Source of the DNA: Candidatus Nomurabacteria bacterium GW2011_GWE1_32_28
GTDB lineage: Bacteria > Patescibacteriota > Minisyncoccia > Phycocordibacterales > UBA9973
Reading direction: 5' to 3'
DNA: 64,000 bases
Assembly: GCA_000989515.1 (NCBI GenBank)
Contig: LBOM01000005.1
Coordinates: 2,709-66,708 of the forward strand
Below are positions 3,669-59,036 of this stretch, one piece after another. Numbering within the stretch: the first letter of the stretch is position 1; every line of letters begins with the position of its first letter. The notes beneath the pieces are model-generated. The model saw only the letters and a program-made list of their open reading frames with translations, was not told where the DNA came from and searched no databases. The translations under genes were made by a program, and so were the position numbers.

Positions 3669-3695
3669 GCAAATCACGAATTATAAATTTTAAAA

Positions 3696-5456
3696 ATGCA
3701 AAAACAAAAACAAAAAAAAGTTAATAATCAGTCAGGTGCTGCAATGTTGGTGTCTATTGTTTTTTTTCTTTTTATTTCTCTTGCTATAATTTCTGGTCTT
3801 GTTTCACCATCTATTCGTGAATTTAAAAATGCTAATGTTGATTTAAGTTCAAAGAGATCATTTTTCTTAGCTGAATCAGGTATTGAAGATGCATTTTATA
3901 GAATATTAAAAAATAAAATGATAGGAACAAATGAAAATATTACGCTCGATTCTAATTCGACCACGACTACTATTACAACTCTGGAAGGTGGTGAAAAGCA
4001 GATTATGTCACTTGGTGATGTTTCAAATTATGAAAGACAAATAGGTTTAAAACTTTCTACTGGCAGTGGTGTTTCTTTCAATTATGGAGTACAGGTAGGA
4101 CAAGGTGGTATTAATTTAGTTGGTAGTGGTACCGTAAACGGAAATATATATGCAAATGGTCCAATTACTGGAGATGGTTCTGCTATCATCACTGGTACAG
4201 CAATTTCAGCTAATAGTCCTGCTCTAGCTGCAGACCAAGAAAATGGAGTTGGAATTCCAGACTACAATGTTACATTTGGAAATACAAATAGTACTCAAGA
4301 TATTGCTCAAAGTTTTAAAGTTGGAACAGAAAGTCCATTAAATAAAATTCAAATTTATGTTAAAAAAGTTGGTAATCCAAGTAATGCTACTGTTAAGATA
4401 GTCAATGATGTAAATGGAAATCCTGGTACTACAATATATGCTAGTGGAACACTTTCTGCTTCTGCTGTTACTACTTCATATGGATGGTTAAATATTACTT
4501 TCTCGTCTAACCCGTTACTTGATGTTGCCACGACTTATTGGTTAATTCTTGATGCAAGTACTTCTAGTAGTAAATATTATGTTATTGGTGCATCAAATAA
4601 TGGATATTTAAATGGTGTTGGAAAGATTGGTCAATCAAGTGGGATCTGGAACAATACAACACCAGAAGGACTTGATTATTATTTTGGTATTTACCTTGGT
4701 GGTTTTAATGGACTTATACAAGGTAATTCTCTTAGTCAGTGGAATCAGCTTCATGTTGGTACTATATCTGGTTCTGCTCAGGCTCATACTGTAAATTATA
4801 CGAACGCTACTGGAAATATATATTGTCAAACAGGGACTGGTAACAACAAGCCTTGTATCTTGCAGACTGATCCGACTTATATAGATTTTCCTGTTTCAGA
4901 AGCAAATATTTTACAATGGAAAACAGAAGCAGAGGCAGGTGGAGTTTATAATGGTAATTATTCGGTGGGTTGGGCTGGTGCAACCCTGGGTCCTAAAAAG
5001 ATAATTGGAAATTTGACAGTCTCAGGTGGAGGTATCTTAAATGTTACTGGTAGACTATGGGTTACAGGAGAGATTACTCTTAATGGTGGTGGAACGATTA
5101 AACTTGATTCAAGTTATGGCTCAAATGATGAGGTAATTATTTCTGATGATGAAGTTTCTATTTCTGGAGGAGGTCATGCAAGCGGATCTGGTACTGAAGG
5201 AAGTTATATTATGATGTTTTCTACTTCTACTGAGAGTGATGCAATGTTGATTTCTGGTGGAGCTGGTGCTGTTATTGCATACGCTCCTTTTGGCACTATC
5301 ACTATCTCTGGTGGTGCTTCTCTAAAAGAAGCTACAGGATATAGAATAATTGTCTCTGGTGGATCTAGTATTACTTATGAATCTGGTTTGACTAATAATA
5401 ATTTTTCTAGTGGACCTTCTGGTTCATGGGTAGTAGAAGAATGGATGGAGAAATAA
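3696..5456 (+). CDS. Large pilus-associated protein with a PilX-like N-terminal anchor and a Gly/Ser/Thr-rich beta-rich body
   Basis: SG|AAMLV plus a hydrophobic helix, with no Glu at +5. It is the last gene of the pilin block. The function is an inference. Confidence 0.45.
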   Translation: MQKQKQKKVNNQSGAAMLVSIVFFLFISLAIISGLVSPSIREFKNANVDLSSKRSFFLAESGIEDAFYRILKNKMIGTNENITLDSNSTTTTITTLEGGEKQIMSLGDVSNYERQIGLKLSTGSGVSFNYGVQVGQGGINLVGSGTVNGNIYANGPITGDGSAIITGTAISANSPALAADQENGVGIPDYNVTFGNTNSTQDIAQSFKVGTESPLNKIQIYVKKVGNPSNATVKIVNDVNGNPGTTIYASGTLSASAVTTSYGWLNITFSSNPLLDVATTYWLILDASTSSSKYYVIGASNNGYLNGVGKIGQSSGIWNNTTPEGLDYYFGIYLGGFNGLIQGNSLSQWNQLHVGTISGSAQAHTVNYTNATGNIYCQTGTGNNKPCILQTDPTYIDFPVSEANILQWKTEAEAGGVYNGNYSVGWAGATLGPKKIIGNLTVSGGGILNVTGRLWVTGEITLNGGGTIKLDSSYGSNDEVIISDDEVSISGGGHASGSGTEGSYIMMFSTSTESDAMLISGGAGAVIAYAPFGTITISGGASLKEATGYRIIVSGGSSITYESGLTNNNFSSGPSGSWVVEEWMEK

Positions 5457-9393: not shown

Positions 9394-9894
9394 ATGAAAA
9401 AAGATAAAATAATAATTTATACAGATGGTGCTGCGAGAGGAAACCCAGGTAAGGCTGGATGGGCAGCTATTATAATCAATTACGAATTACGAATTACGAA
9501 TCCAAAAATAATAGAGCTTGGTGGTTCATCTAGTTATGCCACAAATAACCAAATGGAGCTTTCTGGGCCAATAGGAGCATTAAAATATCTACATTTAAAT
9601 TCCGCTAGGCAAGGCCTAGCGCATGATGTAGAAATTTTTTCTGATTCAAAATACGTTATATTGGGTATTACAGAATGGATTTTTAATTGGCAGAAGAATA
9701 ATTGGAGAAATGCAGCCAAAAAATCAGTTTTGAATAAAGAGCTTTGGGTGGAGCTTTATGAGCTTTCTAGAGAATTTAAGATTAAATGGACTTATGTAGA
9801 AGGTCATAGTGGTGATAAATATAATGAAAGAGCAGATGAAATAGCTACAAATTTTGCTGATGGCAATAAAATAGAATTAAAAAACGAAAGATAA
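9394..9894 (+). CDS. rnhA: Ribonuclease HI
   Basis: IYTDGAARGNPG, NNQMEL and the HSGDKYNERAD catalytic pattern. It contains the in-frame heptamer array at 9474-9503. Confidence 0.85.
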   Translation: MKKDKIIIYTDGAARGNPGKAGWAAIIINYELRITNPKIIELGGSSSYATNNQMELSGPIGALKYLHLNSARQGLAHDVEIFSDSKYVILGITEWIFNWQKNNWRNAAKKSVLNKELWVELYELSREFKIKWTYVEGHSGDKYNERADEIATNFADGNKIELKNER

Positions 9895-9923: not shown

Positions 9924-11402
9924 ATGCAAGATAAAGTTTTTTATGCATCTTGTTTTGGTTTTATATTTGGAGTGCTGTTGCGCTCTTTTGTTTTTGTAGA
10001 TTTATATTTAGTTATTTTATTTATGTTAATTGCTTTGGCAATTATTTTGTTTTATTCCTTAATTTCAAAAAATAAATGGGGAATATTTGTAGGAATTTTT
10101 ATTTTAGTTTTCTCTTTAGGGATTTTTAGATTTAATATGGTTGATGTTTCTGCTCCTGCAGTTTTTGAATCAAGTCTTGGACAAAAAGCATTTTTCTCTG
10201 GAGAAATAATAGACGAACCGAGTATAGGAGATACTAATCAGAAATTTAGTGTAGAAATTAAGAATAATAAAGATAAAACAAAAGTTTTGTTGTCTGTAAA
10301 TTTAAATGAATATTTAAAATATGGTGATGAAATAAATTTTGAAGGAACACTAGAGAAACCAGAAAATTTTATCACAGATCAAGGAAAAGAATTTGACTAT
10401 ATAAATTATTTACGGAAAGATGGCATATTTTATGTTATGAGATATCCTACGATTGAAATTGTATCTCATGGGAATGGTAATTTTATAAAAAATGCTCTTT
10501 TTTATGTTAAAGAAATGTTTTTAAATAAAATGAATTTGGCTATAAGAGAACCAGAATCATTGCTCATGGGTGGACTTATTTTAGGAGAGAAAGCTTCATT
10601 TGATGAAAGTTTAAGGCAAAGTTTTGTAGATACTGGTACGATACATATTGTTGCACTTTCTGGGTACAATGTGACTATCGTTGCTGAGTGGATAATGAAA
10701 ATATTTTCTTCATTTCCTAAAAACATAGGTCTTGGTGCTGGTATATTTTCTATTCTTCTTTTTGTTTTGATGACTGGTGGGTCTTCTACTGCAGTACGAG
10801 CTGGAATAATGGCGAGTCTTGCACTTTTTGCACGTCTTATAGGAAGAAATTATGATGTTGCACGGGCACTAATACTTGCTGGTATTGTAATGGTTTTAAT
10901 AAATCCATTTGTTCTCGTTTTCGATGTTTCTTTTCAACTTTCTTTCATAGCGACTGTCGCTGTGATATTCTTTGCACCTAAAATTGAGAAATATTTTTTA
11001 TGGGTCACTACTCGTTTTGAATTACGAGATATTATTTCTGTAACATGTGCAGCTTATATTTTTGTTTTACCTTTTATACTTTATAAGATGGGCAATCTTT
11101 CATTGGTGGCATTGCCTGCGAATGTTTTGATATTACCATTTATTCCTTTTACTATGATTTTAGGTTTTCTGACTGGTTTTACAGGAATTATTTGGTATGT
11201 TTTTGCAATTCCTTTTGGTTCACTTTCTTTTGTTCTTCTTCATTATGAACTCTCTGTAATAAGTTTCTTTTCAAATTTGCCATTTGCTGCATTGTCTGTG
11301 CCAAATTTTCCATTTATTCTTACACTTTTAATTTATATCTATTTTATTTATAGACTTTTTGGAAGGAGCATCAAAAGTTTTTTTAAAGAAGCTTTAGAAT
11401 AG
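9924..11402 (+). CDS. comEC: ComEC/Rec2 competence channel, N-terminal OB/DUF4131 plus polytopic membrane domain only
   Basis: About 10 hydrophobic spans and the ComEC core pattern GLILGEK...VDTGTIHIVALSGYNV. No beta-lactamase domain is present in this ORF. Confidence 0.75.
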   Translation: MQDKVFYASCFGFIFGVLLRSFVFVDLYLVILFMLIALAIILFYSLISKNKWGIFVGIFILVFSLGIFRFNMVDVSAPAVFESSLGQKAFFSGEIIDEPSIGDTNQKFSVEIKNNKDKTKVLLSVNLNEYLKYGDEINFEGTLEKPENFITDQGKEFDYINYLRKDGIFYVMRYPTIEIVSHGNGNFIKNALFYVKEMFLNKMNLAIREPESLLMGGLILGEKASFDESLRQSFVDTGTIHIVALSGYNVTIVAEWIMKIFSSFPKNIGLGAGIFSILLFVLMTGGSSTAVRAGIMASLALFARLIGRNYDVARALILAGIVMVLINPFVLVFDVSFQLSFIATVAVIFFAPKIEKYFLWVTTRFELRDIISVTCAAYIFVLPFILYKMGNLSLVALPANVLILPFIPFTMILGFLTGFTGIIWYVFAIPFGSLSFVLLHYELSVISFFSNLPFAALSVPNFPFILTLLIYIYFIYRLFGRSIKSFFKEALE

Positions 11403-11493
11403 CTGCCTTTTCACAGCCCGCACTCGAACCTGAATGTGGTTTACGAATCTAATATTGCGTATGCTGAAAAAGGCACCATTCTAAAGCTTCTTT
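11385..11493. terminator. Long imperfect inverted repeat between the convergent comEC and SOD genes (probable bidirectional terminator)
   Basis: Perfect 16-bp arms AAAGAAGCTTTAGAAT (11385-11400) and ATTCTAAAGCTTCTTT (11478-11493). An inner pair is TGCCTTTT / AAAAGGCA. Confidence 0.5.
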
Positions 11494-31292: not shown

Positions 31293-31409
31293 TTCAATTA
31301 CGAATTATAAATTACGAATTACGAATTAAAATACAAAAGAAGGGAGAATCAATTATGAATTAACAATTACCTGCCTACCGGTAGGCAGGCGAATTACGAA
31401 TTAATAAAC

Positions 31410-34851: not shown

Positions 34852-35025
34852 AAATTTTCTTTAAAAAAATAAGAATAATGTTTTTAAGGGATTTTGAGGC
34901 TTTTATTCTTAGTTTTTTAAGTTTTTTTTAAAGAACTTATAAATAAAAATTTCAAGAGTCGTGTTGGTTCCCTGTCCTTATGTCTCCGATGGCGAAGGCT
35001 CAGAAATTTTTGATTTTTAAGTTCT

Positions 35026-35394
35026 TTAATACATTAATTTATAAATTTTCTCATCAGCATTTCCAAATTCATCTTTAGCTTCTATATTGATTGTATTATA
35101 TCCTGGTAGCAAAGCTATCGTTTCATTAAAATTTCCTTTTTGGTCTACTGATATTTCACGATTATTTAATATTAAGTTAATAGCATTTCTAGCATTTCCT
35201 GTTATTTTTATGATGTTGTTTACGACCTTTGTACCTTCTTGGATTGGCAATCCATCTACCGACATATTTACATCTTTTATTTTAACACCGAATATTACAT
35301 CTTTAGATGTAAAAAATCCAAAAACAATTATAAAAAGTAAAAGAAAAATAATAGAACCCATTTTTACTATTTTTTTTGCATCTGTGTTTGTCAT
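35026..35394 (-). CDS. Small membrane-anchored protein with an Ig-like ectodomain (hypothetical)
   Basis: 122-aa ORF with an N-terminal TM helix and a beta-rich C-terminus. No motif was recognised. Confidence 0.5.
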   Translation of the reverse strand: MTNTDAKKIVKMGSIIFLLLFIIVFGFFTSKDVIFGVKIKDVNMSVDGLPIQEGTKVVNNIIKITGNARNAINLILNNREISVDQKGNFNETIALLPGYNTINIEAKDEFGNADEKIYKLMY

Positions 35395-35513: not shown

Positions 35514-37775
35514 TTAATTGACTATGTTCTCTCCACTCTCTGTATGTTCTATTTTCTCCAAAACTTCTCTTGGTTTTGCACCATCACCAGCACTTATGAC
35601 TCCACGTTCTTGTAATGTATCCATCAGTCGTGCTGCACGAGCATATCCGAGTTTTAATTTTCTTTGAAGATATGACGTTGAAGCTTTTCCTGCTTCTATC
35701 ACACATTGTCTTGCTTCTTCATACATTTCATCTTCATCATCGTCTTTATCATCCAATGTACTTTCAAATATGCTTTTATCTGCAGAGATTGAACCACTAG
35801 TTAGTGATATTTCATCGGTTAATTCATCTTTGTATGCATCTACTAAATATTTAACAACTTTTTTAACTTCTGTTTCTGAAATAAATGCACTCTGTAGACG
35901 TTCTGGCTGAGCTTCTCCTGAGGAATATAGCATATCACCAGCTCCTAAGAGTTTCTCTGCCCCACCTGCATCGAGGATAGTACGCGAATCTATTTGTGAA
36001 GATACTTTGAGTGCCACGCGAGCAGGAATATTTGCTTTGATAAGTCCAGTAATGACATTTACTTCAGGGCGTTGCGTGGACAATATCAAATGTATTCCGA
36101 CAGCTCTAGACATTTGAGCTAGGCGGACGATTGCAGATTCTAGTTCTCTAGGGTAAGAGCTCATGATATCTGCTAATTCGTCTATGATGATGACTATATA
36201 AGGTAGGCGATCAGCATCTACTTCTGTTTTTGTTCCATCTTCGCCTGTCTTTGTTTTCTTTGGATTTTTACCAAATACATTAGTGTGGTAAGACTCTATA
36301 TCTCTCACAGATTCTGCTTCGAGTATATCATAACGGCGATCCATTTCTTTTGCTGCCCATTTTAATGCTAATATTGTCTTTTTTGCTTCAGTTATGACAG
36401 GGGTAAGTAGGTGTGGAATGTTGTTATAAAGAGTTAGCTCTACGCGTTTTGGATCTATCAAGATAAGTTTTAAATCATCTGGTCCATTTCTATATAATAG
36501 GGAAGTGATAATAGAATGTATTGTCACAGATTTTCCAGAGCCTGTAGTACCTGCGACAAGTGCATGTGGCATTTTTGCTAAGTTTCCAAACATAGCTTTT
36601 CCTGATATTCCTCGTCCTAGAGCTATGGTGAGAGGTTTTGGAGAATTTTGGAACTTACTATCTGAGAGAAGTGTTGCGAGGCCTACTATTGATTTTGATT
36701 TATTTGGGATCTCAATACCTACGAGAGATTTACCTGGGATAGGAGCTTCTATACGGATAGGGTGTGCAGCTAGAGAAAGTGCGAGGTCGTTTTGTAGACC
36801 GACTATGCGTGAGAGTTTTACACCTTCGGCTGGCTTCAATGCATAACGTGTGACGGTAGGTCCGACTGTTATCTCATCCATTTCGACTTCAATGCCGAAG
36901 TTTGCAAGTGTGCGTTTGATTATATTTGCATTTGCTTTTATGTCTCCAGTATTTGGCTTACCTTGATCTTCTTCGAGCAATGAGAGTGGGGGAGGGACAT
37001 AAGTAGAGACGAGGCCACCTTTTCTTTTTCTAATAGGCATCTCTTCTTCCTCTTCTTGTCCGTGTTTTATATCTAGAGCTTTTTTAATTTTCTCTACAGT
37101 AGAACTTTGTTCTTCTACTTCCTTTGTTGCTTTTTCTGAGGCAGGATTTTTGTCTATCATGTTTTCTTCTTTTTCGTTCAATGTGGAGACTGGTTGTTCT
37201 TTTTTTCTTGAAATCGATGCCCATAAATTTTTGAAAGTTAAAATGATGTTTAGCTTCACGTCAAACATCACTACGATAGATATCAATAGTAATGCACCGA
37301 GGAATATTATACTGGCATAGACATCAAATAAAGATACGAGGGGAGTCGAAAGAATTCTTCCCAAGAACCCTCCTCTATGTTCGAGAGAGACGACGTCTAT
37401 GATGCCGAGACTAGAGAGCAAAAACATGGTTCCACTCAATGCACGAGTGAGTCCGACATTTGGAGTTTCTGATTTCAAAAATGATGAGCCGAGTAATATA
37501 AAAAGAAGAGGGAGAAGTATGTATCCTATACCGAGTAAATAATTTAAAATTTCATAAATAAATTGACCAGCTACTCCAGCAATATCAAATATAGACATCA
37601 AAAGAAAAAGCGCTAAAACAAAAAATAAGATTGCCCAGATGCTGTGTATCGTTTCTGTTTTTAATTTGCTCATGGAATAAGAATTATTGTTGGAAGATTC
37701 TCTGTTGTTTTTCTGTTTATTATTTTTTGCCATATAGTACATTTTATCACTTTTTTTCATTTTAGTTAAATCCAC
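35514..37775 (-). CDS. ftsK: DNA translocase FtsK/SpoIIIE
   Basis: N-terminal TM helices, the motor domain GTTGSGKS and IIIDELAD, and the C-terminal gamma wHTH (TSYLQRKLKLGYARAARLMD). Confidence 0.9.
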   Translation of the reverse strand: MDLTKMKKSDKMYYMAKNNKQKNNRESSNNNSYSMSKLKTETIHSIWAILFFVLALFLLMSIFDIAGVAGQFIYEILNYLLGIGYILLPLLFILLGSSFLKSETPNVGLTRALSGTMFLLSSLGIIDVVSLEHRGGFLGRILSTPLVSLFDVYASIIFLGALLLISIVVMFDVKLNIILTFKNLWASISRKKEQPVSTLNEKEENMIDKNPASEKATKEVEEQSSTVEKIKKALDIKHGQEEEEEMPIRKRKGGLVSTYVPPPLSLLEEDQGKPNTGDIKANANIIKRTLANFGIEVEMDEITVGPTVTRYALKPAEGVKLSRIVGLQNDLALSLAAHPIRIEAPIPGKSLVGIEIPNKSKSIVGLATLLSDSKFQNSPKPLTIALGRGISGKAMFGNLAKMPHALVAGTTGSGKSVTIHSIITSLLYRNGPDDLKLILIDPKRVELTLYNNIPHLLTPVITEAKKTILALKWAAKEMDRRYDILEAESVRDIESYHTNVFGKNPKKTKTGEDGTKTEVDADRLPYIVIIIDELADIMSSYPRELESAIVRLAQMSRAVGIHLILSTQRPEVNVITGLIKANIPARVALKVSSQIDSRTILDAGGAEKLLGAGDMLYSSGEAQPERLQSAFISETEVKKVVKYLVDAYKDELTDEISLTSGSISADKSIFESTLDDKDDDEDEMYEEARQCVIEAGKASTSYLQRKLKLGYARAARLMDTLQERGVISAGDGAKPREVLEKIEHTESGENIVN

Positions 37776-37825
37776 TTATTAAGGATTTTTATAGGAACAA
37801 TTTTTAAAAACTATATAGATAAAAT

Positions 37826-38137
37826 CATAAATTAAAAGTCTCAAATTATCAAAAAGATTTTAGTAAGAATCAATTTTTATAAAGCAATCTATCTGGCGAA
37901 GCTTCGGGAGCGTTCTGCTCGTCACTCAAGAAAATAATAAATGGAATACCATTTTTATTTTCTAAGCTCCTGCGCAAGGCTTTCTAAAAACTATTCTTAC
38001 TAAAATCTTAAATTACTAAAGTCTTGAATTGTTGCTTTTAAAAAGCATTGCGCAGGCTGTCGAGCTGAGCATAGCAATTTTCTAGCAAGAAAATATGTGC
38101 GGTTTTTAAAAGTAATAATTTGAGACTTTTAATTTAT
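37826..38137 (+). other. Nested inverted-repeat element, a candidate structured leader or ncRNA (a MITE-like alternative is possible)
   Basis: A perfect 23-bp outer inverted repeat (37826-37848 / 38115-38137), an inner hairpin (37855-37869 / 37992-38006) and a 26-bp hairpin (38017-38042 / 38104-38129) with four G.U pairs on the + strand only. Confidence 0.4.
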
Positions 38138-38207
38138 CTTAATTCGTAATTCGTAATTGTTAATTCGTAATTGATTCCCCCTTGCATTTTTCTCTGTCCT
38201 ATATATA

Positions 38208-39107
38208 ATGGACAACATGATCTTAGGTGAAAATAAAAACCTAAAAGACACCTCTAAGGATTCTTTTAAAGACACCTTTTCTGTTCCTATCTCAACATCT
38301 AATAAACAAGAGCAATCTGTCTCTTTGGTTTCTTCTTGGCAAAATTATTCTGGTTCATATACTAAAACAAATAAGTTGGTTACCGCTTTATATATGGTAA
38401 CGGACATAATGGAAAAAGGAGAACCTATTCGTTTAAAATTAAGAACTCTAGGAGTAGAAATTCTATCAGACATTGCATTTCTAGAAAAAGGGACTTTTGG
38501 TAATATAAAGGACAAGGTTATTTCAATTTTGTCCTTTTTAAATATTGCTTCTGATTTAGGAATGATATCAGGAATGAACAGTACTATTTTAAAGAAAGAG
38601 TTTACTGGACTTAAGCAATCAATAGAAGAATTTACAAATAAAAACAATCTTTGGTTTGAAGAATTTATGAGTGATAATTCAAAAGAAGAATTAAATGATT
38701 CTGTTTCAAGTCCTTTAGTTTCTAAGATAGATTTTTCTATCGGACACTCTAAATTAAATGATAAAAAAGATGTGTCTTTTGCTAAAGGACAAAGTGTGAG
38801 AATAGGAGTTCAAAAAGGAAGTACATTACTCAAGGCCTTGAGTAATGTTAAGGGAAATTCCATTAACAAAAATGCTAGTTCAGAGGGCTTTGAAATGCTT
38901 AAAAAAGACAGAAGAGAATCAATAATAAAAATTACAAAAAGTATACCAAATGGGGTGAGTATAAAGGACATTGTTACAAGATTAGATAACACTGGAAAAA
39001 AGTATGGAGAGAAGACAATACAAAGAGAATTGGTATCTATGGTAAAGGACAATGTCCTTAAGAAAACTGGAGAGAAGAGATGGAGTAAATACTCAATTAA
39101 CAATTAG
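38208..39107 (+). CDS. Hypothetical protein with a C-terminal winged-helix-like region
   Basis: 299-aa ORF. The C-terminus IKDIVTRLDNTGKKYGEKTIQRELVSMVKDNVLKKTGEKRWSKY resembles a wHTH. Confidence 0.5.
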   Translation: MDNMILGENKNLKDTSKDSFKDTFSVPISTSNKQEQSVSLVSSWQNYSGSYTKTNKLVTALYMVTDIMEKGEPIRLKLRTLGVEILSDIAFLEKGTFGNIKDKVISILSFLNIASDLGMISGMNSTILKKEFTGLKQSIEEFTNKNNLWFEEFMSDNSKEELNDSVSSPLVSKIDFSIGHSKLNDKKDVSFAKGQSVRIGVQKGSTLLKALSNVKGNSINKNASSEGFEMLKKDRRESIIKITKSIPNGVSIKDIVTRLDNTGKKYGEKTIQRELVSMVKDNVLKKTGEKRWSKYSINN

Positions 39108-39189
39108 AAATTACGAATTACGAATTGGATTCAATTGACCTTTAAAAGGGCCCGCCTTCATAGTAATGAAAGTGGGCCCTTAATTTTTG

Positions 39190-39301
39190 TAATTCGTAAT
39201 TGATTAGTCTTCTTTTGAGCCTTTAAATTCGTAATTCATAATTGTTAATTCGTAATTGATTAGTCTTCTTTTGAGCCTTTAAATTCGTAATTCGTAATTC
39301 G
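39190..39301. repeat. Tandem duplication (2 x 56 bp) built on ATTCGTAATT heptamer units
   Basis: TAATTCGTAATTGATTAGTCTTCTTTTGAGCCTTTAAATTCGTAATTC occurs at 39190 and again at 39246. Confidence 0.85.
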
Positions 39302-39854
39302 TAATTTTTAATTGATTCTATAGTTGCTTTTTACCCAAAAATATGCGAAAATAGAGTTGTGGATATTTGGCCTCAAAAGCTATTGTTCTTTTATTAGACG
39401 AGTTATCCACATAATATATTGCTCTATCTTATAGCTATATATTATACTATCTAAAGTGTTCAGAGATTGCGCTTTTATTGAGTGTGTTCTGTGTTCACAA
39501 TTTATATTTGTTTTTGTTCATAATTTCGTCGAAAAAATTTTGAATAAAGGCAAGCCCAACAAAGGTCAAAAATTTGTTTGGGTAAAAGAAAGGTCATTGA
39601 AAACTGAATAAAAAATATCTTATAAAAAGTAAATTTTTTGTAAGAGATTTTGTTCAAGTTTTTAATCTCAATTGAAAAATAAAAAATATTAAAAACATTT
39701 TTTATCATCAATTGATGTTTAAAGAAATCTGTTCATTATTAAATTTTTTCGTCGCATTATTAATTTTTATAAGTTATAGACGAAGAAAAAATAATGATAG
39801 AAAAAATACGCTTTTGGTTTTGTCGAAACTAACTTAATGGCGTAGAAAAAAATT

Positions 39855-44877: not shown

Positions 44878-44893
44878 AATTTAATAAATCTTA

Positions 44894-45177: not shown

Positions 45178-45774
45178 ATGGATCAAAAACAACCATGGTT
45201 TATAAATTTGTTTTTAAATTTTAAAGGAAGACTTTTAATTATAGTTTTTATTACGATCTTTGTTACGTTAATTACAGTTATTCATTCTTTTGTATTGAGA
45301 TTAAATCCTTATTTAATCATAGAGTTAGTAATCACTGTTTCTTTTTTTGGTATGTATTTTTCTATTCCTCAATTGATTGCTACTCAAAAAAGTGAAAAAT
45401 TTAGAAAAAGATTATATCTTAAAAGTGGTAAAAAAATATTATCATTATTATCTTCGATTTCTTTCTATTTTATTTTATGTATTTTAATTGTTTTTTTATT
45501 TGGTATGGTTCTTGCTACTATATTTACTTCATCTGACAATGGAGAAATTTGGGCTTATTCTCTTTTTGGTTCTGGTTTATATGTTTTTATCTTTTGGTTA
45601 GCTTCTTTCTTAGTTGGTGTAATTTCTTTATTATTAAATTCTAATAAATCGGAAATTGTAATAGTTCAGGAAAGAACTCCTGTTAAAGTTTATTTTTCAT
45701 CTATTATTTTTATTTTTTTATCCGTACTTGTATTATTCTTTGTATTTATATTTACTGTAGAAAATTATTTATAA
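45178..45774 (+). CDS. Hypothetical polytopic membrane protein
   Basis: 198 aa with about 5 hydrophobic spans. Confidence 0.5.
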   Translation: MDQKQPWFINLFLNFKGRLLIIVFITIFVTLITVIHSFVLRLNPYLIIELVITVSFFGMYFSIPQLIATQKSEKFRKRLYLKSGKKILSLLSSISFYFILCILIVFLFGMVLATIFTSSDNGEIWAYSLFGSGLYVFIFWLASFLVGVISLLLNSNKSEIVIVQERTPVKVYFSSIIFIFLSVLVLFFVFIFTVENYL

Positions 45775-45788
45775 TTTTACTTTATTAT

Positions 45789-45815
45789 CTTGTCGGGTGT
45801 TGGACACCCGACAAG
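45789..45815. repeat. REP-like palindrome, copy 3
   Basis: CTTGTCGGGTGTTGGACACCCGACAAG. Confidence 0.85.
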
Positions 45816-45962
45816 ATAAGGAGTTTTTATAAAACACTCATATTTTACGGGTGTTTTATTTTGTGTTATGAGATAATAGTTATGGTTGTATTTATAATTT
45901 TATTTTAATAAAGATTTTTAAAAGATTTCCAGTTATTGGATTTCTGTAGATCTTAATTTTTT

Positions 45963-46622
45963 ATGAGAAAAAATCCTCTTGTAACTAATCAGTATTATCA
46001 TATTTATAATAGAGGAGTCGATAAAAGAGATATTTTTATGAATAAATCTGATTTAGATAGATTTATTTTGAGTGTAAAGGAATTTAATATAGTTAAACCT
46101 ATAGGTAGTATTAAAGAGCGATTAATAGAATTAAAAGCCCCGTCGGGTGTTGGACACCCGACGGGGCTTGTTTCTATTGTCTGTTATTGTTTTAATCCAA
46201 ATCATTTTCATTTTATTTTAAAACAAGAAGTAGATGGTGGAATTTCAGAATTTTTTAAGCGTTTACTTGGTGGATATACAAATTATTTTAATTTAATACA
46301 CAAGAGAAATGGGGCATTATTTCAAGGAAGATTTAAGTCTAATTTGGTTGACGATGAAGAATATTTTTTAAAAATTCGTCCTTATGTGCATTTAAATTAT
46401 TTAGTACATGATATTCCAAAAGAAAAAAAGTATTTAATATCATCAAGCAAGAAAGAATATGATACTAATAAATTTACTATTGTTTCAAAAAAAGAAGCAA
46501 AAGAACTTTTGGATTTTTATAATGGTAATCTAAATTATAAAAAAGAATGCTTAGATGTAATTTCTTTTATTCGAGAAGAAAGAGGATTAACTTCTTTGTT
46601 TGAAGAAGAATTATTACCATAA
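45963..46622 (+). CDS. REP-associated tyrosine transposase (RAYT; IS200/IS605 TnpA-like HUH Y1 enzyme)
   Basis: YYHIYNRGVDKRDIF, the HUH motif NPNHFHFIL, ALFQGRFKS and the Tyr motif RPYVHLNYL. REP palindromes flank it. Confidence 0.8.
   Translation: MRKNPLVTNQYYHIYNRGVDKRDIFMNKSDLDRFILSVKEFNIVKPIGSIKERLIELKAPSGVGHPTGLVSIVCYCFNPNHFHFILKQEVDGGISEFFKRLLGGYTNYFNLIHKRNGALFQGRFKSNLVDDEEYFLKIRPYVHLNYLVHDIPKEKKYLISSSKKEYDTNKFTIVSKKEAKELLDFYNGNLNYKKECLDVISFIREERGLTSLFEEELLP
46137..46167. repeat. REP-like palindrome, copy 4, inside the RAYT coding sequence
   Basis: GCCCCGTCGGGTGT-TGG-ACACCCGACGGGGC (14-bp stem). It is translated in frame as APSGVGHPTGL. Confidence 0.85.
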
Positions 46623-46635
46623 AAATTATCCCTTA

Positions 46636-46654
46636 TCGGGTGTTGGACACCCGA
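46636..46654. repeat. REP-like palindrome, copy 5
   Basis: TCGGGTGTTGGACACCCGA, 14 bp after the RAYT stop codon. Confidence 0.85.
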
Positions 46655-46723
46655 AATGGAAAGTTATACACCTTTTTGCTTTATTTTTGTTGTGTAATGT
46701 TTTCATTAGCATATACTTGAACA

Positions 46724-47374
46724 ATGGATAAAATAAAAATATTTTTTGGTGCTCACAAAATTTTGAAAATATTTATGTGGGCTTTTTTAATTCTACTTGG
46801 ATTGTATATTATTTTGGTTGCTTTTCGTGTTGTTAATCTTTTTAATTTAGATAAGACAAATGCACAAGTAGAAAAGATTCATAATACAAAACTTTCTATA
46901 GATGATGTGATGGGTGTAAATCTTCCTTCTGATCCTGGTGTTGAAGCTGATAAAACTGTGCAAGGTATCGATGCTAATGAAAATGGTATTCGTGATGATG
47001 TGGAGATAGCTATATTTAAAGAATATCCCAATTCTGCAAAAACTCGCGCAGTCCTTTTGCAGTATGCTTTAGCTTTGCAGATGGAAGTAATTCAACCTAT
47101 TGAGAATACAGTTACTGTGACAGAAATTATAACAGAACAAAGCAGGGCAGATACTTGTGTTGCCGATACTCTTGTACCCAGAGAAAGTCCTGAATCTTCA
47201 AGACATTATTCTGATGTGGAAAAAATTAACACTTTTATTAAATCTATTGAAGGTAAACAATTTAATACAGAGGTAAGAAAATCAAATCATCAAAATTTTA
47301 TGAAAAATCTTAGAAGTTTTGGAGAATCAACTAATGAAATTTGTGACATAGATATTTTGAAGTTAACAGATTAA
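46724..47374 (+). CDS. Hypothetical membrane-anchored protein
   Basis: 216-aa ORF with an N-terminal TM helix. Confidence 0.5.
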   Translation: MDKIKIFFGAHKILKIFMWAFLILLGLYIILVAFRVVNLFNLDKTNAQVEKIHNTKLSIDDVMGVNLPSDPGVEADKTVQGIDANENGIRDDVEIAIFKEYPNSAKTRAVLLQYALALQMEVIQPIENTVTVTEIITEQSRADTCVADTLVPRESPESSRHYSDVEKINTFIKSIEGKQFNTEVRKSNHQNFMKNLRSFGESTNEICDIDILKLTD

Positions 47375-51599: not shown

Positions 51600-51802
51600 G
51601 ATATTATACAAATACCGCAAAGAAAATAGGCGTAATCAATTAACAATTAAGAATTACGAGTTAACAATTTGAAATTCGTAATTAAAAATTCGTAATTGAA
51701 TGTAAGTCCTATTTAGTGGGTCGATATTTGCCAAACAGGCGAAAAAGATTTGCGGCGAAAGCCGTTTTTTTTGTTTTTAAAAAATAAAAAGGTAATAAAA
51801 TT
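51600..51802 (+). promoter_or_regulatory. Structured leader upstream of rplJ (candidate L10-leader-type autoregulatory attenuator)
   Basis: Paired heptamer arrays (51631-51701) and the GC hairpin GCGGCGAAAGCCG plus T8 (about 51752-51775) lie just before the rplJ start. Confidence 0.35.
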
Positions 51803-52304: not shown

Positions 52305-52673
52305 ATGTCAAAATTTGATTCATTTATGAAAGACCTTGAGAGCGCATCAGTTTTAGAATTGAATGATCTCGTAAAGGCAATAGAAGAAAAGTTTGGAGTT
52401 TCCGCCGCCGCTGTCGCAGCTGCCGGTCCTGCTGCAGGTGCTGCAGAAGCCGCTGAAGAAAAAGATTCATTTACATTAGTACTTACATCTGCTGGTGAAC
52501 AAAAAATAGCTATCATGAAAGTTGTAAAAGAAGTTTTGAGTCTTGGACTTAAAGAGGCTAAAGATCTAGTCGATGCTGTCCCTTCTACATTAAAAGAAGG
52601 TATGAAGAAAGCTGAAGCTGATGAACTTAAGAAAAAGATTGAAGAAGCAGGTGGAAAAGTAGAATTAAAATAA
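52305..52673 (+). CDS. rplL: Ribosomal protein L7/L12
   Basis: An Ala-rich hinge ([19 protein letters not shown]) and the C-terminal [19 protein letters not shown]... Confidence 0.95.
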
Positions 52674-52681
52674 TAGAAGAA

Positions 52682-52754
52682 AGAGCGAATACAAAAGTTT
52701 TCTGGCGGACAAAAGAACAAAGTGCCCGCAGGCGAAAACTTTTGTATTCGCTCT
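52682..52754 (+). terminator. Long-stem terminator after rplL
   Basis: Perfect 21-bp stem AGAGCGAATACAAAAGTTTTC / GAAAACTTTTGTATTCGCTCT with a 31-nt loop, followed by a T-run. Confidence 0.7.
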
Positions 52755-52794
52755 TTTTTATTGTTTTTTATAAAAAGGGTGGTATTATATATAT

Positions 52795-54181: not shown

Positions 54182-55082
54182 TAAATACTTTATAGAAATA
54201 GAAAAAAGATGTCCACACTTTCCCCATTGGGGCTTAGGTTGACATCTTTTTTCGTTTAATATATACTCTTTCAATCAGTATGATTACATTAAGAAACAAG
54301 TTTAAAAGGCGGTTTTAAGCAGACTTTCTTTTGTCTGTTGACCGCTTAAAAAGCGGTTTTTTATTTGGTAAGTATGGCTTGAAAATTGACAACTTAAATC
54401 CTATCCTAGTATTCTTGGACAACTTGCAAAAGTGTGTCCGGCATGCAGCCTGTATGCTTAGGGTCTTTTCAAAGCTAGAGATAGGAAATTGTTTAAATAA
54501 TTTTGAATGCCGAGCGGTCGGACTAGATTTTATTATAAGCATTGTTTTATCCTTATGTAATGTAAGGATTGTGATTTATAAATTTCTTAACAGGAAATTT
54601 AAGGGCGTATGGTGGATGCCTTGACTTTAAGAGGCGATGAAGGACGTGGCGTTGCTGCGATAAGCTTCGGGGAGGTGCTTAGCTACCTTTGATCCGGAGA
54701 TTTCCGAATGGGGAAACCCTATCAAGTAAACCTTGATAACTTTTATCTTTATGATAAAAGAGCATACCCTGGGAAGTGAAACATCTCAGTACCAGGAGGA
54801 ATAGAGACAAATATGTATTTCCTTAGTAGCGGCGAGCGAAAAGGAAGAAGCCCAAACCGTTCTCGCAAGAGGGCGGGGTTGTAAGATGACAATGTAGTTT
54901 ACTAGGAGAGTTAAAAAATAAATTATTAGTTGAAGTTGCTGGAAAGCGACACCGTAGGGGGTGATAGTCCCGTAAACGAAAATAATTTATCTCTTTTATT
55001 GTTATTCTTGAGTACCCCAGGACATGAATGGCCGGGGGGAATCTAGCGGAACTAACCGCTAAGGCTAAATACTCTTAAAGAT

Positions 55083-55119
<37 letters not shown>

Positions 55120-56332
55120 CAGCCCGATTAGGGCGGTGAAATAGACCTGAAACCATATGTCTACAAGGAGTCGGAGCAGGTATTTATATCTGCAACGGCG
55201 TGCCTATTGAAGAATGAGCCAACGAGTTTATTCATACTGCAAGGCTAAGCTGGCTAAAACAGCAGAGCCGAAGGGAAACCGAGTGTTAATAGCGCGAATG
55301 AGTAGTATGCATAAGACCCGAAGCCAGGTGAGCTTGCCATGAGCAGGTTGAAGTTTGTCGAAAGACAAATGGAGGACCGAACCGGTAGATCGTACAACGT
55401 CTTCGGATGACTTGTGGTAAGGAGTGAAAAGCTAATCGAACCTGGTAATAGCTGGTTCTCTCCGAAATAGCTTTAGGGCTAGCGTCACTGGAAGGTTTCG
55501 ACAGGGAGCAATCTCGCGAAACCTATCAAACTCCGAATACCAGAAACCATAGCTTGGCAGTTAGGCCATGGGGGCGAAGCTCCATTGGCCAAAAGGGAAA
55601 CAGCCCAGATCTCAAAATAAGGTCCCTAAATTTATGCTAAGTGTAAGATAAGAAGGTGGAATTTCTCTGACAATGAGGAGGTTGGCTTAGAAGCAGCCAT
55701 CCTTTAAAGATAGCGTAACAGCTCACTCATCTAGAGATTTTGCGTCGACATAGTACCGAATTTGAGGATTTCGTTTTTCTTCGGAAGAACGGAGTGGTAG
55801 GAGAGTGTTCCAATCTGCTGTGAAGTAGGACTCGTGAGAGCCTATGGAGCGTTTGGAAGTAAGAATGTTGGCACAAGTAACCGCAATGAGGGTGAGATCC
55901 CCTCACGTCGAAAGATCAAGGTTTCCTTGGTAATGTCAATCAGCCAAGGGTTAGTCGGGCCTAAGGGAATGGAGAAATCCGTACTCGATGGACATAGGGT
56001 TAATATTCCCTGACTTCTGTATTTTGTGATGGGACGACGGAGTGTAGTATGTATTGCTCATTATTGGATTTGAAGTTTGTTTACTAAAGATGAGGTGTAG
56101 GAAAATCCGCACACTGCTTTCAATGGCAAATCTAAGGTAAATGAAAAGTCTTAAGCCTCGGTTTAGGACAATAATACAAAGCACGCTTCCAAGAAAAATC
56201 TCTAAACTTAAAAATATAGAATCCGTACCGCAAACCGACACAGGTGATCAGGTCGAGTAGACCAAGACGAACGAGTGAGTGGTCCCCAAGGAACTCGGCA
56301 AAAAAGCAGCCGTAACTTCGGGATAAGGCTTG

Positions 56333-56486
56333 CCCCCACCACTTTGGATATTTCTAAATATTTGAGAGTGTTGGGAGAGTAAGATTTAAGTATCGAGCAA
56401 AAAGAGACAATGAGGAATTAAATTAAAGCTCTTCATCATTTTTTATTTCACAGAATTTTTTTGTGAAGTATCTAAAGTGGTGGGGG
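56333..56486 (+). other. AT-rich expansion / intervening-sequence-like insertion in the helix-63 region of the 23S
   Basis: A closing stem CCCCCACCACTTT / AAAGTGGTGGGGG encloses about 128 nt of AT-rich sequence, where E. coli has a much shorter helix. Confidence 0.6.
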
Positions 56487-56640
56487 CCGCAGCGAAAGTT
56501 TCTCTGGCAACTGTTTACCAAAAACACAGCTCCCTGCGAACTCGTAAGAGGATGTATAGGGGGTGACACCTGACCAATGCCAGAAGGTCAAATATCGGCG
56601 GTGTATGTCGCAAGATGTATGCAGACTGATATAAGCCCTG

Positions 56641-56683
<43 letters not shown>

Positions 56684-57301
56684 ACCTTGTCGGGTAAGTT
56701 CCGACGCGCACGAATGGTGTAATGACTGGAGAACTGTCTCGGGGACCAGCTCGGTGAAAATACAATGCCGGTGAAGATGCCGGCTAAGTGCAGTTAGACG
56801 AAAAGACCCTAGAAGCTTTACTATAACTTGATATTGAGCATGTTTTTAAACTGCGTAGAATAGATGGGAGAGGTTTGAAGTGTACGGTTTCGGCTGTATT
56901 CTACTCGTCAGTGAAATACCATTCTTTTTGAAGGCATGTTCTAACCAATACGGCAAAAACGTATTGAGACAGTATCTGGTGGATAGTTTTACTGGGGCTG
57001 TACCCTCCTAAAAAGTAAAGGAGGGGTTTAAAGGTTAGCTAGGCGCGAATGGAAACCGTGCCGATAGTGTAATGGCACAAGCTAGCTTGACTGTAAGAGG
57101 TACATCTCAAGCAGGTGGGAAACCAGAACATAGTGATCCGACCATACGCATTAGACGCGGTGGAAGCTCAACGGATAAAAGCTACTCTAGGGATAACAGG
57201 CTAGTTCCGCCTAAGAGTTCATATCGACGGCGGAGTTCGGCACCTCGATGTCGGCTCACCTTAGCGCGGCGGTGGAGAAGCTGCCAAGCGTTTCAGACCG
57301 T

Positions 57302-57643
57302 TCTTCAGTCAATTATTAAATTGACTTCAGAACAGTCTGGATCCTCAGAGGAATAGTGAACGAAAGTGAACTACTGTTTTAATCGAAATTAACCATATTG
57401 CTGTTTGCAATATCACGGCGGTCGCGTTAAATTTATATTAACAAATCACGCGATGAAGTCGGGGTTTTCGGTGGAATCCTATCACATTTATGTGAGGACA
57501 ATACCGAGAAGAAAATTTATTTTTTCTTTGTAGAGACTACAAACCGACCCCCTTAAATTGGGGAATGTATAGTCCAATCCCATAAGTAATTATGGAAATT
57601 GCTAAAGCCTAAGGCCTAATGCCTAAAGCCTAGCATGTAGATG
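57302..57643 (+). mobile_element. ORF-less group-I-like intron at the position equivalent to E. coli 23S U2593 (boundaries provisional)
   Basis: The 3' flank resumes exactly at CGTGAGACAG. The 5' flank ends in U and the insert ends in G. A core can be drawn: GTCGG/CCGAC, TTCGGTG/TACCGAG, GACTAC/GTATAGTC, CCCC/GGGG, and an S-like AATGTATAGTCC at 57564-57575. Confidence 0.55.
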
Positions 57644-57706: not shown

Positions 57707-58526
57707 AGGCCCGGAAGGGCTTTGCTACTTCACGAAGAAATTTGTGATGAAAAAGTGGCTAATAACGGTGAAGTCTTCATTGATGTTTCTGATTTGAGAA
57801 AAATAATATCATTCGATCCTTGATATTATGATTCGCTTGAGGACCAGAAATATGATAAGATAATACCGTGGGAAGTCGATTTAAAATTATGAAAGAAATT
57901 GAGAAAGCTTATATTGCTGGTTTTCTTGATGGAGATGGTAGTCTAATGCTTCAAATTAAAAAAAGAAGTGATAGTAAACGAGGAATTCGTTTTATGACAA
58001 CCATTTGTTTCTATCAAGACACTAGACATGAAAAGACTTTATATTGGATGAAAAAGATTTTAGGTATTGGTTATATTTCCAGAAGAAATGATGGAATGAC
58101 TGAACTTAGAATAAATGGATATGTGCAGATTGCAAAAATTCTTAAAGATTTATTGCCTTTTGTAAAATTCAAAAAAATACAAGCTAATATTTTATACAAA
58201 GCTTGTAATCTTTTATCTAAAACAAAGTTTAGTAATCTCTCGGAAAAACAATTAATTAAGCTCGTTGATTTAATTTTAGTTATTCAAGGTGAAAACTATG
58301 TTACTAAAAAGAAAAAAACCAAAAATGAATTGTTTAAAATTTTAAATTTGACCCCGTAACGACTTGTTTCCGACTTTATGTCGGAACGGACTTACATAAC
58401 ACTGGAAAGTTCTAATATATTTAATATATGAGAACAGGTTTATGTTTGTAATACGCCAACGCCTTAACTTTAATTAAAGAAAGGCGAAGATATAGTCTGC
58501 ACTCCTAGAAATAGGGGAGATATGTG
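57707..58526 (+). mobile_element. Group I intron inserted inside the sarcin-ricin loop of the 23S, carrying a LAGLIDADG homing-endonuclease gene
   Basis: GCTCCTAGT|...|ACGAGAGGACCGGAGTG. The 5' exon ends in U and the insert ends in G. The conserved J8/7-P7 element AAGATATAGTC lies at 58487-58497. Confidence 0.8.
57889..58359 (+). CDS. LAGLIDADG homing endonuclease (single-motif, I-CreI-like)
   Basis: MKEIEKAYIAGFLDGDGSLMLQIKK..., 156 aa from the ATG at 57889, located inside the intron. Confidence 0.9.
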   Translation: MKEIEKAYIAGFLDGDGSLMLQIKKRSDSKRGIRFMTTICFYQDTRHEKTLYWMKKILGIGYISRRNDGMTELRINGYVQIAKILKDLLPFVKFKKIQANILYKACNLLSKTKFSNLSEKQLIKLVDLILVIQGENYVTKKKKTKNELFKILNLTP

Positions 58527-58793
58527 ACGAGAGGACCGGAGTGAACTGACCTCTGGTGTACGAGCTCTATTGCCAAATGGACTGCTCGGTAGCTATGTCG
58601 GGATTGGATAACCTCTGAAAGCATCTAAGAGGGAAGCCAGCTTCAAGATTAGGAATCGTTAAGAACCGTGAGAGATGATCACGTTGATAGGCTTTAAGTG
58701 TAAGCGAGAAGTACTAATGTTTCGATTCCTGTTAAGAAATTTGTAAATCACAATTAAAAAAATAAAAAAATTCATATTAATATTCATTATTAT

Positions 58794-58902
<109 letters not shown>

Positions 58903-59036
58903 ATAGTAATGAATTTTTTTATTTAAATTTGTCGCAGGATGCCCCGTCTTACAGGCACAGTACACCTTTTGGATTTTTTCATTCACGTTGTTCTGAAAAA
59001 TTCTCAAAAGCTCTTGCACTTGGGTCCCAAACCAAA

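Follow-up and report, generated by a model that had tools for sequence, protein, structure and literature searches.

The 312-bp region between ftsK and its divergent downstream neighbor in this Candidatus Nomurabacteria genome is not one unit: it consists of two diverged, inverted copies of a single family of structured elements. The family is previously undescribed, belongs to Nomurabacteria/Paceibacteria, covaries strongly and has no Rfam match. Its unit is ~105–155 nt long and can be recognized at the same intergenic site in many related genomes.

We use 'the window' for the whole stretch of DNA analyzed, 64 kb (64,000 nt) of a 410-kb contig; it has 32% G+C, carries nearly all of its genes on the + strand and shows a positive GC skew almost throughout. 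The intergenic region was compared by blastn and nhmmer with 80 fetched loci encoding orthologues of the downstream protein, and each lobe separately matched one element of ~105–150 nt that occupies the same intergenic position elsewhere, in either orientation. We call the common alignment sense of these elements the A-sense, and the opposite strand the B-sense. The + strand of copy 1 is homologous to the reverse complement of copy 2, so that in the window copy 1 has its B-sense on the – strand and copy 2 on the + strand. Read in the A-sense, the unit runs from a closing stem (P1) through GCAC-ACATA, P2, TTGCT-nTG-CTCG, P3 and CCTGCGCAAGGC to the returning arm of P1, and the three sequences between the helices are conserved, unpaired junctions. 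P1 is 20–36 bp long and its sequence is specific to each copy, with complementarity kept. P2 has a variant form made up of ATCTATCT, a G+C-rich palindrome and AGCGAACTG. P3 is a 4-bp hairpin with the loop CGNC that can bear a long extension; this optional extension is ~45 nt long. Some copies also have a conserved basal module.

Copy 1 (37854..38009, the first lobe) matches the family profile with an nhmmer E-value of 7.7e-13 and folds better on the – strand, its B-sense. Its closing stem pairs 37854–37877 with 37986–38009 and encloses a variant P2 region at 37889–37918 (ATCTATCT-GGCGAAGCTTCGGG-AGCGTTCTG) in which the hairpin is partly decayed, a long P3 extension hairpin at 37929–37963, and the conserved junction CCTGCGCAAGGC at 37969..37980, which is homologous to the copy 2 junction on the opposite strand at 38044–38055. 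Relative to the family and to a paralogous copy found in contig L297, copy 1 has altered conserved positions and a partly broken P2 hairpin. Aligned in reverse orientation, copy 1 and the copy in L028 share 82% identity over 137 nt; for the copy in L008 the figure is 82% over 127 nt. Copy 2 (38009..38137, the left end being approximate) folds better on the + strand, its B-sense, and is recognized by covariance model R1 with 86.6 bits (E = 1.8e-14), with the A-sense on the – strand. It has a closing stem of 38018–38044 with 38103–38129 that can be extended to 38009 and 38137, a P3 at 38055–38066 (GGCT-GTCG-AGCT, with a G55.T66 wobble on the + strand) and a P2 at 38077–38094 with the loop AGCA. 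Copy 1 thus combines the alternative P2 with a long P3, and copy 2 the common P2 with a short P3.

All helices reported for this region in a preliminary description are confirmed, and they far exceed chance expectation. The perfect 23-bp inverted repeat, whose left arm had been placed one base too far to the left, has its arms at 37827–37849 and 38115–38137, and none of 100 shuffles contained any match to it with up to three mismatches allowed; the arms enclose 265 bp, with divergent genes on either side. Also recovered were the inner helix (37854–37877 with 37986–38009, 24 nt, 88% complementary), the hairpin inside it (the apical hairpin at 37929–37963) and the second helix (38018–38044 with 38103–38129), in which 23 of the 27 positions are Watson-Crick pairs and exactly four are G.T. 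Those four pairs (38025/38122, 38026/38121, 38031/38116 and 38034/38113) are valid wobbles on the + strand only, as had been claimed. Because the arm 38115–38129 is part of the outer helix as well as of the second one, the two helices do compete. The motif TGCGCA...GGCT was correctly noticed in both lobes, but it occurs there in opposite senses because the lobes are inverted homologues, and it represents one conserved junction read from opposite strands. The fold of the whole region is similarly extreme on both strands when compared with shuffled sequences (z = –7.9 for the + strand and –8.4 for the – strand), indicating that the region as a whole has no strand preference.

The outer arms trace to a direct repeat internal to the locus, in which 37801–37849 repeats 37981–38031 (78% match between the left part and 37981–38030). 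The right-hand member of this repeat comprises the end of the copy 1 stem and the outer 5' arm of the copy 2 stem. The left arm of the inverted repeat (37827..37849) lies within the left-hand member and is an extra, third copy of the outer 5' stem arm of copy 2, exactly complementary to the 3' arm; the right arm (38115..38137) is the outer 3' stem arm of copy 2 and can pair with either 37827–37849 or 38009–38031. The proximal arm differs from the left 23-mer by four transitions and one indel. The remaining left part of the direct repeat (37801..37826) is a relic similar to the 3' arm of the stem in a copy-1-type element (TTTTTAAAAACTAT...TAAAATC). We infer that a local duplication of ~180 bp gave rise incidentally to both the perfect 23-bp repeat and the 'mutually exclusive' helices. 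Since the left 23-mer is a duplicated arm, the competing helices can be explained without any switch. The flanks of the 23-bp arms, ending in GATAAAATC on the left and beginning with TCTTAATTCG on the right, contain no direct repeat that would represent a target-site duplication.

A syntenic copy with covariation, which the preliminary description had proposed looking for, is what the orthologous loci revealed. From 21 copies aligned with MAFFT without tuning, RNAalifold predicted P1, P2 and P3, with 31 of 33 pairs kept through double changes. When 41 copies were aligned by covariance model, double changes were present at 33 of 34 pairs, and 89.1% of cells were paired, compared with 55.9% in column shuffles; none of 500 shuffles reached the observed value, and sliding the partners along the alignment gave at most 55.5%. 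The core is far better conserved than the host genes, and P1 differs even within one genome. Two loci (L024 and L063c) have an identical 37-nt core beside proteins that are 34% identical, and the proteins adjacent to copy 1 and to its 82% match in L028 are 49% identical. In one metagenome contig (L180), the copies at 2526 and 10432 are almost alike in their cores, and their stems are unrelated to each other and self-complementary. Such conservation of the core, with stems that vary freely but stay complementary, is what characterizes a functional folded nucleic acid; a MITE shows the reverse. P2 and P3 are strictly Watson-Crick, with no G.U pair in 268 cells; this is unusual in that it is atypical for RNA, and it counts against an RNA reading. 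A small ORF or type I toxin was considered and rejected: by eye in the alignment, one-column length differences and the compensatory changes in P3 break the reading frame, so no reading frame is conserved.

The family, unlike the two-copy region as a whole, has a strand preference. RNA folds were more stable in the B-sense for 42 of 48 copies, by a mean of 6.8 kcal/mol (Wilcoxon p = 3e-8). The preference persisted when only the copy-specific outer P1 was folded around the same artificial loop (B-sense better in 36 of 48, p = 2e-4), and the outer P1 has 50 G.U pairs in the B-sense versus 22 in the A-sense. In the window, copy 1 folds at –53.6 kcal/mol on the – strand versus –49.0 on the +, and copy 2 at –45.4 kcal/mol on the + strand versus –27.7 on the –. 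The B-sense is thus the wobble-tolerating strand, and the + strand G.U pairs of copy 2 are one case of this family-wide property, which does not extend to a single 312-nt + strand RNA. Replication-strand mutation bias was rejected as the source of the G.T pairs because the bias tracks the orientation of the element and is unaffected by the genomic strand on which a copy lies (18/25 and 18/23). G.T wobbles are tolerated in single-stranded DNA as well, and the strand bias is therefore no proof of RNA.

Both flanking genes have promoters that bound the element. On the right, the downstream gene has its promoter and its true start at 38182..38219 (+ strand), with TTGCAT at 38182–38187, TATAAT at 38204–38209 and the ATG at 38217, framed by a palindrome of TGTCC (38195–38199), ten nucleotides and GGACA (38210–38214). 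The element ends at 38137, upstream of this –35 box. A database protein, P0001, begins at the same ATG, and the conserved product has 296 aa; the promoter is conserved in the orthologous loci that we read, with ~7 nt from the –10 box to the ATG. On the left, the ftsK promoter and start (37734..37769, – strand) comprise TTAACT, a 17-nt spacer, a TG-extended –10 box TAAAAT at 37741–37746, and the ATG at 37734, 7 nt from the –10 box; the arrangement 'GCCAT...ATTTTAACA' of this start recurs in the orthologous loci read. With –10 boxes ~7 nt from their start codons, both mRNAs are leaderless, which places the element outside both of them. A structure model of the downstream protein (mean pLDDT 66) predicts two domains, the C-terminal one a winged helix; we refer to the protein as an Avd-like four-helix-bundle/winged-helix protein. 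It is a plausible nucleic-acid binder, and any link between it and the element is putative.

The preliminary description had seen no signature of RNase P, tmRNA, SRP or 6S RNA, and a scan of the window with Rfam 15 at gathering thresholds agrees, matching only 23S and 5S rRNA. Searching the region and one canonical relative at E-values up to 10 yielded nothing meaningful; the best local matches, to eukaryotic miRNA and snoRNA models, had E ≥ 0.09, far below threshold. A tRNA/tmRNA search found none. By-eye comparison led us to reject SRP RNA, 6S RNA, ribozymes and group II domain 5, as the 'AGG' that is unpaired in SRP RNA covaries here within P3 and no Rfam match exists. Across copies, no sigma-70-like promoter occurs at a consistent upstream place in either sense (mean best scores of 7.3/12 in the B-sense and 7.7 in the A-sense), and no intrinsic terminator consisting of a G+C-rich stem and a T run was found in 37600–38400. 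A replication origin was considered in view of the diverging genes and DnaA boxes at 39358 and 39403, but cumulative GC skew has no lasting reversal, and DnaA boxes are not enriched (19 versus 22 expected). One P2 variant superficially resembles E. coli dif; a dif/Xer site was rejected, as the arms covary, the other variant is unlike dif and the skew does not switch. A literature search found no description of the element.

Among the 80 orthologous loci, 75 have ftsK upstream on the opposite strand, and 26–28 have the element in the interval separating ftsK from the winged-helix gene, a single syntenic site shared by hosts whose neighboring proteins are 34–60% identical. Single copies occur in both orientations, 11–12 in one and 9–10 in the other. 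All eight doublets (the window, L023, L027, L037, L038, L041, L063 and L086) have the same arrangement, with the A-sense on the + strand followed by the A-sense on the – strand. The simplest account of the two single-copy orientations is thus that an ancestral doublet lost either its first or its second member, and not that a copy was inverted. In L018 an additional copy directly follows ftsK, in L034 and L063 one follows the downstream gene, and L180 has three copies within 12 kb in unrelated intergenic regions. For copies placed after genes, the A-sense is co-directional in L018 and L034 and the B-sense in L063 and L180; orientation relative to surrounding transcription is thus not fixed, which counts against an RNA reading. 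The window itself holds the one locus and one remnant, a core-deleted copy upstream of recA (34868..34912, + strand) that keeps a stem arm, a junction (AAGAATAATGTTTTTAAGGGATTTTGAGGC) and the returning arm and matches the right-hand copy of L086 at 29 of 31 positions by eye. Dispersed copies, for which a search had been proposed, are therefore present in part: some genomes have several, but copy number is low.

A further paralogous copy is implied by L297, a contig 99.5% identical to the window that switches inside copy 1 to a paralogous copy beside an RNase T-like gene that is leaderless. The 11 differences are confined to 37905–37952, and the next 2355 nt have none; a switch at this place means that the copies either are substrates for recombination or are points where assemblies break. 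In the closest relatives (L002, L003 and L082, with 53–69% protein identity) the element is absent, and the same spot is occupied by unrelated sequences, either G+C-rich palindromes or 7-bp repeats in inverted arrays. These other palindromes and heptamer arrays, together with the truncated copies, favor a repeat-element lifestyle. Some arm sequences are common to different loci and genomes. A 16-base pattern from the core was also used to scan collections of viral and metagenome sequences. Nearly all matches were due to chance; true copies were found in five metagenome contigs only, and none in the viral collection.

Three explanations treat the region as a single functional unit. The region had been read as a + strand 5' leader or riboswitch acting on the downstream gene through two competing helices. 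Those helices exist, and their four G.U pairs are specific to the + strand, but the conserved promoter lies 3' of the element and yields a leaderless mRNA, in orthologous loci the element may face either way or be missing, copy 1 folds better on the – strand, and Rfam offers no match; we consider a leader very improbable. It is scarcely credible, too, that the region is one MITE with 23-bp terminal inverted repeats, the other reading proposed initially. Perfect inverted repeats do stand at its ends, but no second 312-bp copy was found in the window or in any fetched locus, and no target-site duplication was seen beside the arms. The homologous unit elsewhere is a single lobe of ~105–155 nt, its stems differ around a conserved core, and the left arm belongs to the direct duplication as a duplicated piece of the copy 2 stem. 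An invertible promoter switch, in which site-specific recombination would flip the 265 bp between the 23-bp repeats, would account for the perfect inverted repeat between divergent genes and for the homologous elements in both orientations in other genomes. We give it next to no weight: three independent assemblies of this population match exactly (L001 in the intergenic region, L295 and L296 with 100% identity over 3291 nt), so that no inversion is seen, both genes have fixed promoters outside the repeats, and loss of either member of the ancestral doublet explains the two orientations elsewhere. In addition, no ORF scanned across ~30.3–48 kb matched a recombinase, the only mobile-element match being a weak Y1 transposase.

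Two further explanations apply to the element at the level of DNA. One is an architectural role between back-to-back promoters, in which a cruciform-prone palindrome or protein scaffold would insulate or tune ftsK and the winged-helix gene, perhaps bound by the adjacent protein. In most loci the element fits tightly between the two conserved promoters, some outer stems end in a CTTGCAA-like sequence that coincides with the –35 box, most lineages read have a long palindrome or inverted heptamer array of some family here, and the neighboring protein has a winged helix. We nonetheless regard this role as improbable, as the wobble strand bias is unexpected for double-stranded DNA, copies are also found after genes and in unrelated intergenic regions, and the conserved parts are unpaired junctions, not palindromic half-sites. 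The other, the main rival to the reading that we prefer, is a palindromic repeat of REPIN/MITE type that would be mobile or selfish and whose single-stranded DNA hairpins would be recognized by a trans-acting transposase or recombinase, so that conservation would reflect competence for mobilization and the doublet would be the mobile form. Several copies per genome at unrelated sites (the three in L180 and the extras in L018, L034 and L063), the remnant at 34868–34912, the paralogous copy beside the RNase T-like gene in L297, the two orientations with 8/8 identically inverted doublets, and the patchy presence with other palindrome families at the vacant site all fit this explanation, as do the strictly Watson-Crick P2 and P3, the arms common to different loci and genomes, and a RAYT-like Y1 transposase ORF in the window. 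But copies within one genome keep the core and have unrelated flanking stems, the reverse of the conservation expected of terminal repeats; copy number is low, the 64 kb containing a single locus and a single remnant; in diverged hosts, copies are strongly concentrated at a single syntenic site; the RAYT-like ORF has its own, different 20-nt hairpin repeat; and no target-site duplication or transposase could be linked to the copies. A mobile repeat is, in our judgment, somewhat unlikely as the explanation, though it carries real weight.

The reading toward which we lean, tentatively and a little short of even confidence, is that selection acts on the element as a single RNA strand, folded in the B-sense. 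The unit would behave as a low-copy, ERIC-like intergenic structured module or as a small RNA. Its conserved junctions would be the likely recognition surface, and the long stem a closing or processing stem of the kind that RNase III cuts; leader-type regulation of the gene at 38217 would not be among its functions. Against this reading, stems of 25–36 bp that pair almost perfectly are what one would sooner expect of a palindromic repeat than of a small RNA in bacteria. Of the options raised in the preliminary description, a structured RNA, stand-alone or embedded, and a mobile palindromic element both survive, applied to the smaller unit and not to the 312 bp. A bolder form of the preferred reading would make the element an undescribed class of small structured RNA, widespread in Paceibacteria (CPR), with a three-way junction, a long stem that RNase III could cut, transcription in the B-sense and a core conserved almost like rRNA, perhaps acting with the adjacent Avd-like four-helix-bundle/winged-helix protein; this is an unlikely possibility.

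CPR genomes are tiny and densely packed, and few non-coding elements have been described in them. If transcription is shown, the covariation, conserved core and strand preference would make the family a good candidate for a new RNA family; otherwise, it would exemplify a persistent ERIC/REPIN-like repeat system in CPR. The copies may also act as breakpoints of recombination or assembly, as L297 suggests, which bears on genome plasticity and on the quality of metagenome-assembled genomes.

Several known systems share features with the element. It resembles structured small RNAs with a long processing stem in having a conserved core within a sequence-free, covarying stem. It differs from them in that no promoter or terminator was found, its orientation relative to neighbors is not fixed and it belongs to no Rfam family. 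The window has an example of a closing or processing stem in the rRNA processing stems around the 5S gene (58774–58922). Correia elements of Neisseria are intergenic, hairpin-forming, modular repeats. The pneumococcal BOX, RUP and SPRITE sequences are likewise small, interspersed, intergenic modular repeats that fold as RNA (PMC3049150). Like these and the Correia elements, our element lies near promoters and has long stems that are plausible RNase III substrates. In those repeats, however, the termini are conserved and copies number in the tens to hundreds, whereas the element here is found mainly at one syntenic locus and has copy-specific stems.

The doublets recall REP sequences and the REPIN-RAYT system, in which hairpin units form inverted doublets in one fixed arrangement, singlets can be read as decayed doublets, and the elements are long-lived and vertically inherited (PMC3116915, PMC3337134). 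Fixed-arrangement doublets, singlets, long-lived vertical inheritance and a Y1 (RAYT-like) gene in the window are all shared with that system. In contrast to REP sequences of 20–35 nt, the unit here is ~105 nt long, has a branched core and occurs in low copy number. Nor does it flank the RAYT-like gene, a weak Y1 transposase ORF at 45963–46622 that is surrounded instead by five copies of a different 20-nt hairpin repeat, GTCGGGTGTTGGACACCCGAC.

The likeness to ERIC/IRU elements of enterobacteria is what gives the preferred reading its name. ERIC sequence is conserved across species above neighboring genes and can carry optional insertions at fixed internal sites; these elements are not known to have a transposase, their copy number can be low and RNA-level effects are suspected. 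They are imperfect intergenic palindromes of ~100–150 nt that occur in either orientation (Hulton 1991; Wilson and Sharp 2006). The element described here is like ERIC in its size as an intergenic palindrome, its orientation, its conservation, its internal insertions, its low copy number, its lack of a known transposase and the suspicion that it acts at the RNA level. It is unlike ERIC in host phylum, and no resemblance in sequence was obvious by eye. The whole length of ERIC is common to its copies, whereas here the outer stem is copy-specific and it is the three-way-junction core that is conserved.

The contig L297 (ERZ27254744 k141_420214, positions 1-870) follows the window at 99.5% identity from 37873 rightward. 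To the left of the switch, ftsK is replaced by an RNase T/ExoX-like gene, which is leaderless. The switch point lies within copy 1, the left lobe of the inverted hairpin doublet between ftsK and the winged-helix gene (37854-38009), and all of the mismatches (11/11) fall in 37905-37952. Either L297 is a recombinant haplotype, or paralogous copies were joined in its assembly.

At the promoter of the winged-helix gene, a palindrome, TGTCC-N10-GGACA (38195-38214), encloses the -10 box, and it does likewise in the orthologous loci read. This palindrome is probably an operator. At the same site, some other genomes (L002, L007, L014, L082, and L086) have an additional inserted hairpin with AAAGGACTTGCAA. 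A 7-bp repeat, (AATTCGT)n, forms arrays on either side of the gene; within the window, it gives 28 matches versus 0.2 expected, with arrays at 2578-2609, 3672-3689, 9478-9502, 31296-31368, 38141-38172, 39102-39126, 39184-39313, and 51638-51697, and gene starts lie immediately downstream of most of them. Related genomes have other heptamers (CTAGGTT, CTAGGCN, TAGCTTC) at the ftsK/winged-helix spot, in some cases forming inverted arrays (L008, L010, L022, L032, and L082 for different heptamers or inverted arrays). The heptamer arrays may be protein-binding sites that differ from species to species. Downstream of the winged-helix gene, GAGTTATCCACATAATATATTGCT, which includes a perfect DnaA-box 9-mer, is kept both in the window (39358-39411) and in locus L034 (about 4090-4115); across the whole window, DnaA boxes show no enrichment.

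Between 44893 and 46655 there are five copies of a 20-nt hairpin repeat, GTCGGGTGTTGGACACCCGAC (at 44893, 45086, 45792, 46142, and 46635), grouped around ORFs 45178-47374. One ORF (45963-46622) weakly matches the IS200-like Y1 transposase and REP-associated tyrosine transposase (RAYT) families (E = 7.5e-5 and 3e-5). Together, the repeats and ORFs 45178-47374 have the look of a REP-RAYT cluster, here in the genome of a CPR bacterium.

In the rRNA region, the 23S (54589-57407) and 5S (58796-58901) genes are separated by a gap of ~1.4 kb containing a LAGLIDADG endonuclease ORF (57868-58359), and a 30-nt processing-stem repeat lies on both sides of the 5S gene (58774-58803 and 58893-58922). Within the window, no 16S gene precedes the 23S gene, and no tRNA genes were found across its 64 kb.

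Long palindromes characterise the spacers of this genome in general. Further hairpins, long and A+T-rich and in some cases richer in G+C at the centre, occupy intergenic regions at 11385-11493, 34924-35030 (flanked by recA and a 122-aa gene), 39086-39322, and 52666-52770. G+C-rich palindromic repeats, GGGGTGAGG / AAGGAGAGGG, are intergenic in loci L002-L004, and motifs of them lie within the winged-helix gene coordinates, in the variable linker of the gene, at L009:3451, L017:3457, L043:3403, and L052:3385. These latter repeats may be in-frame insertions comparable to the Rickettsia palindromic elements.
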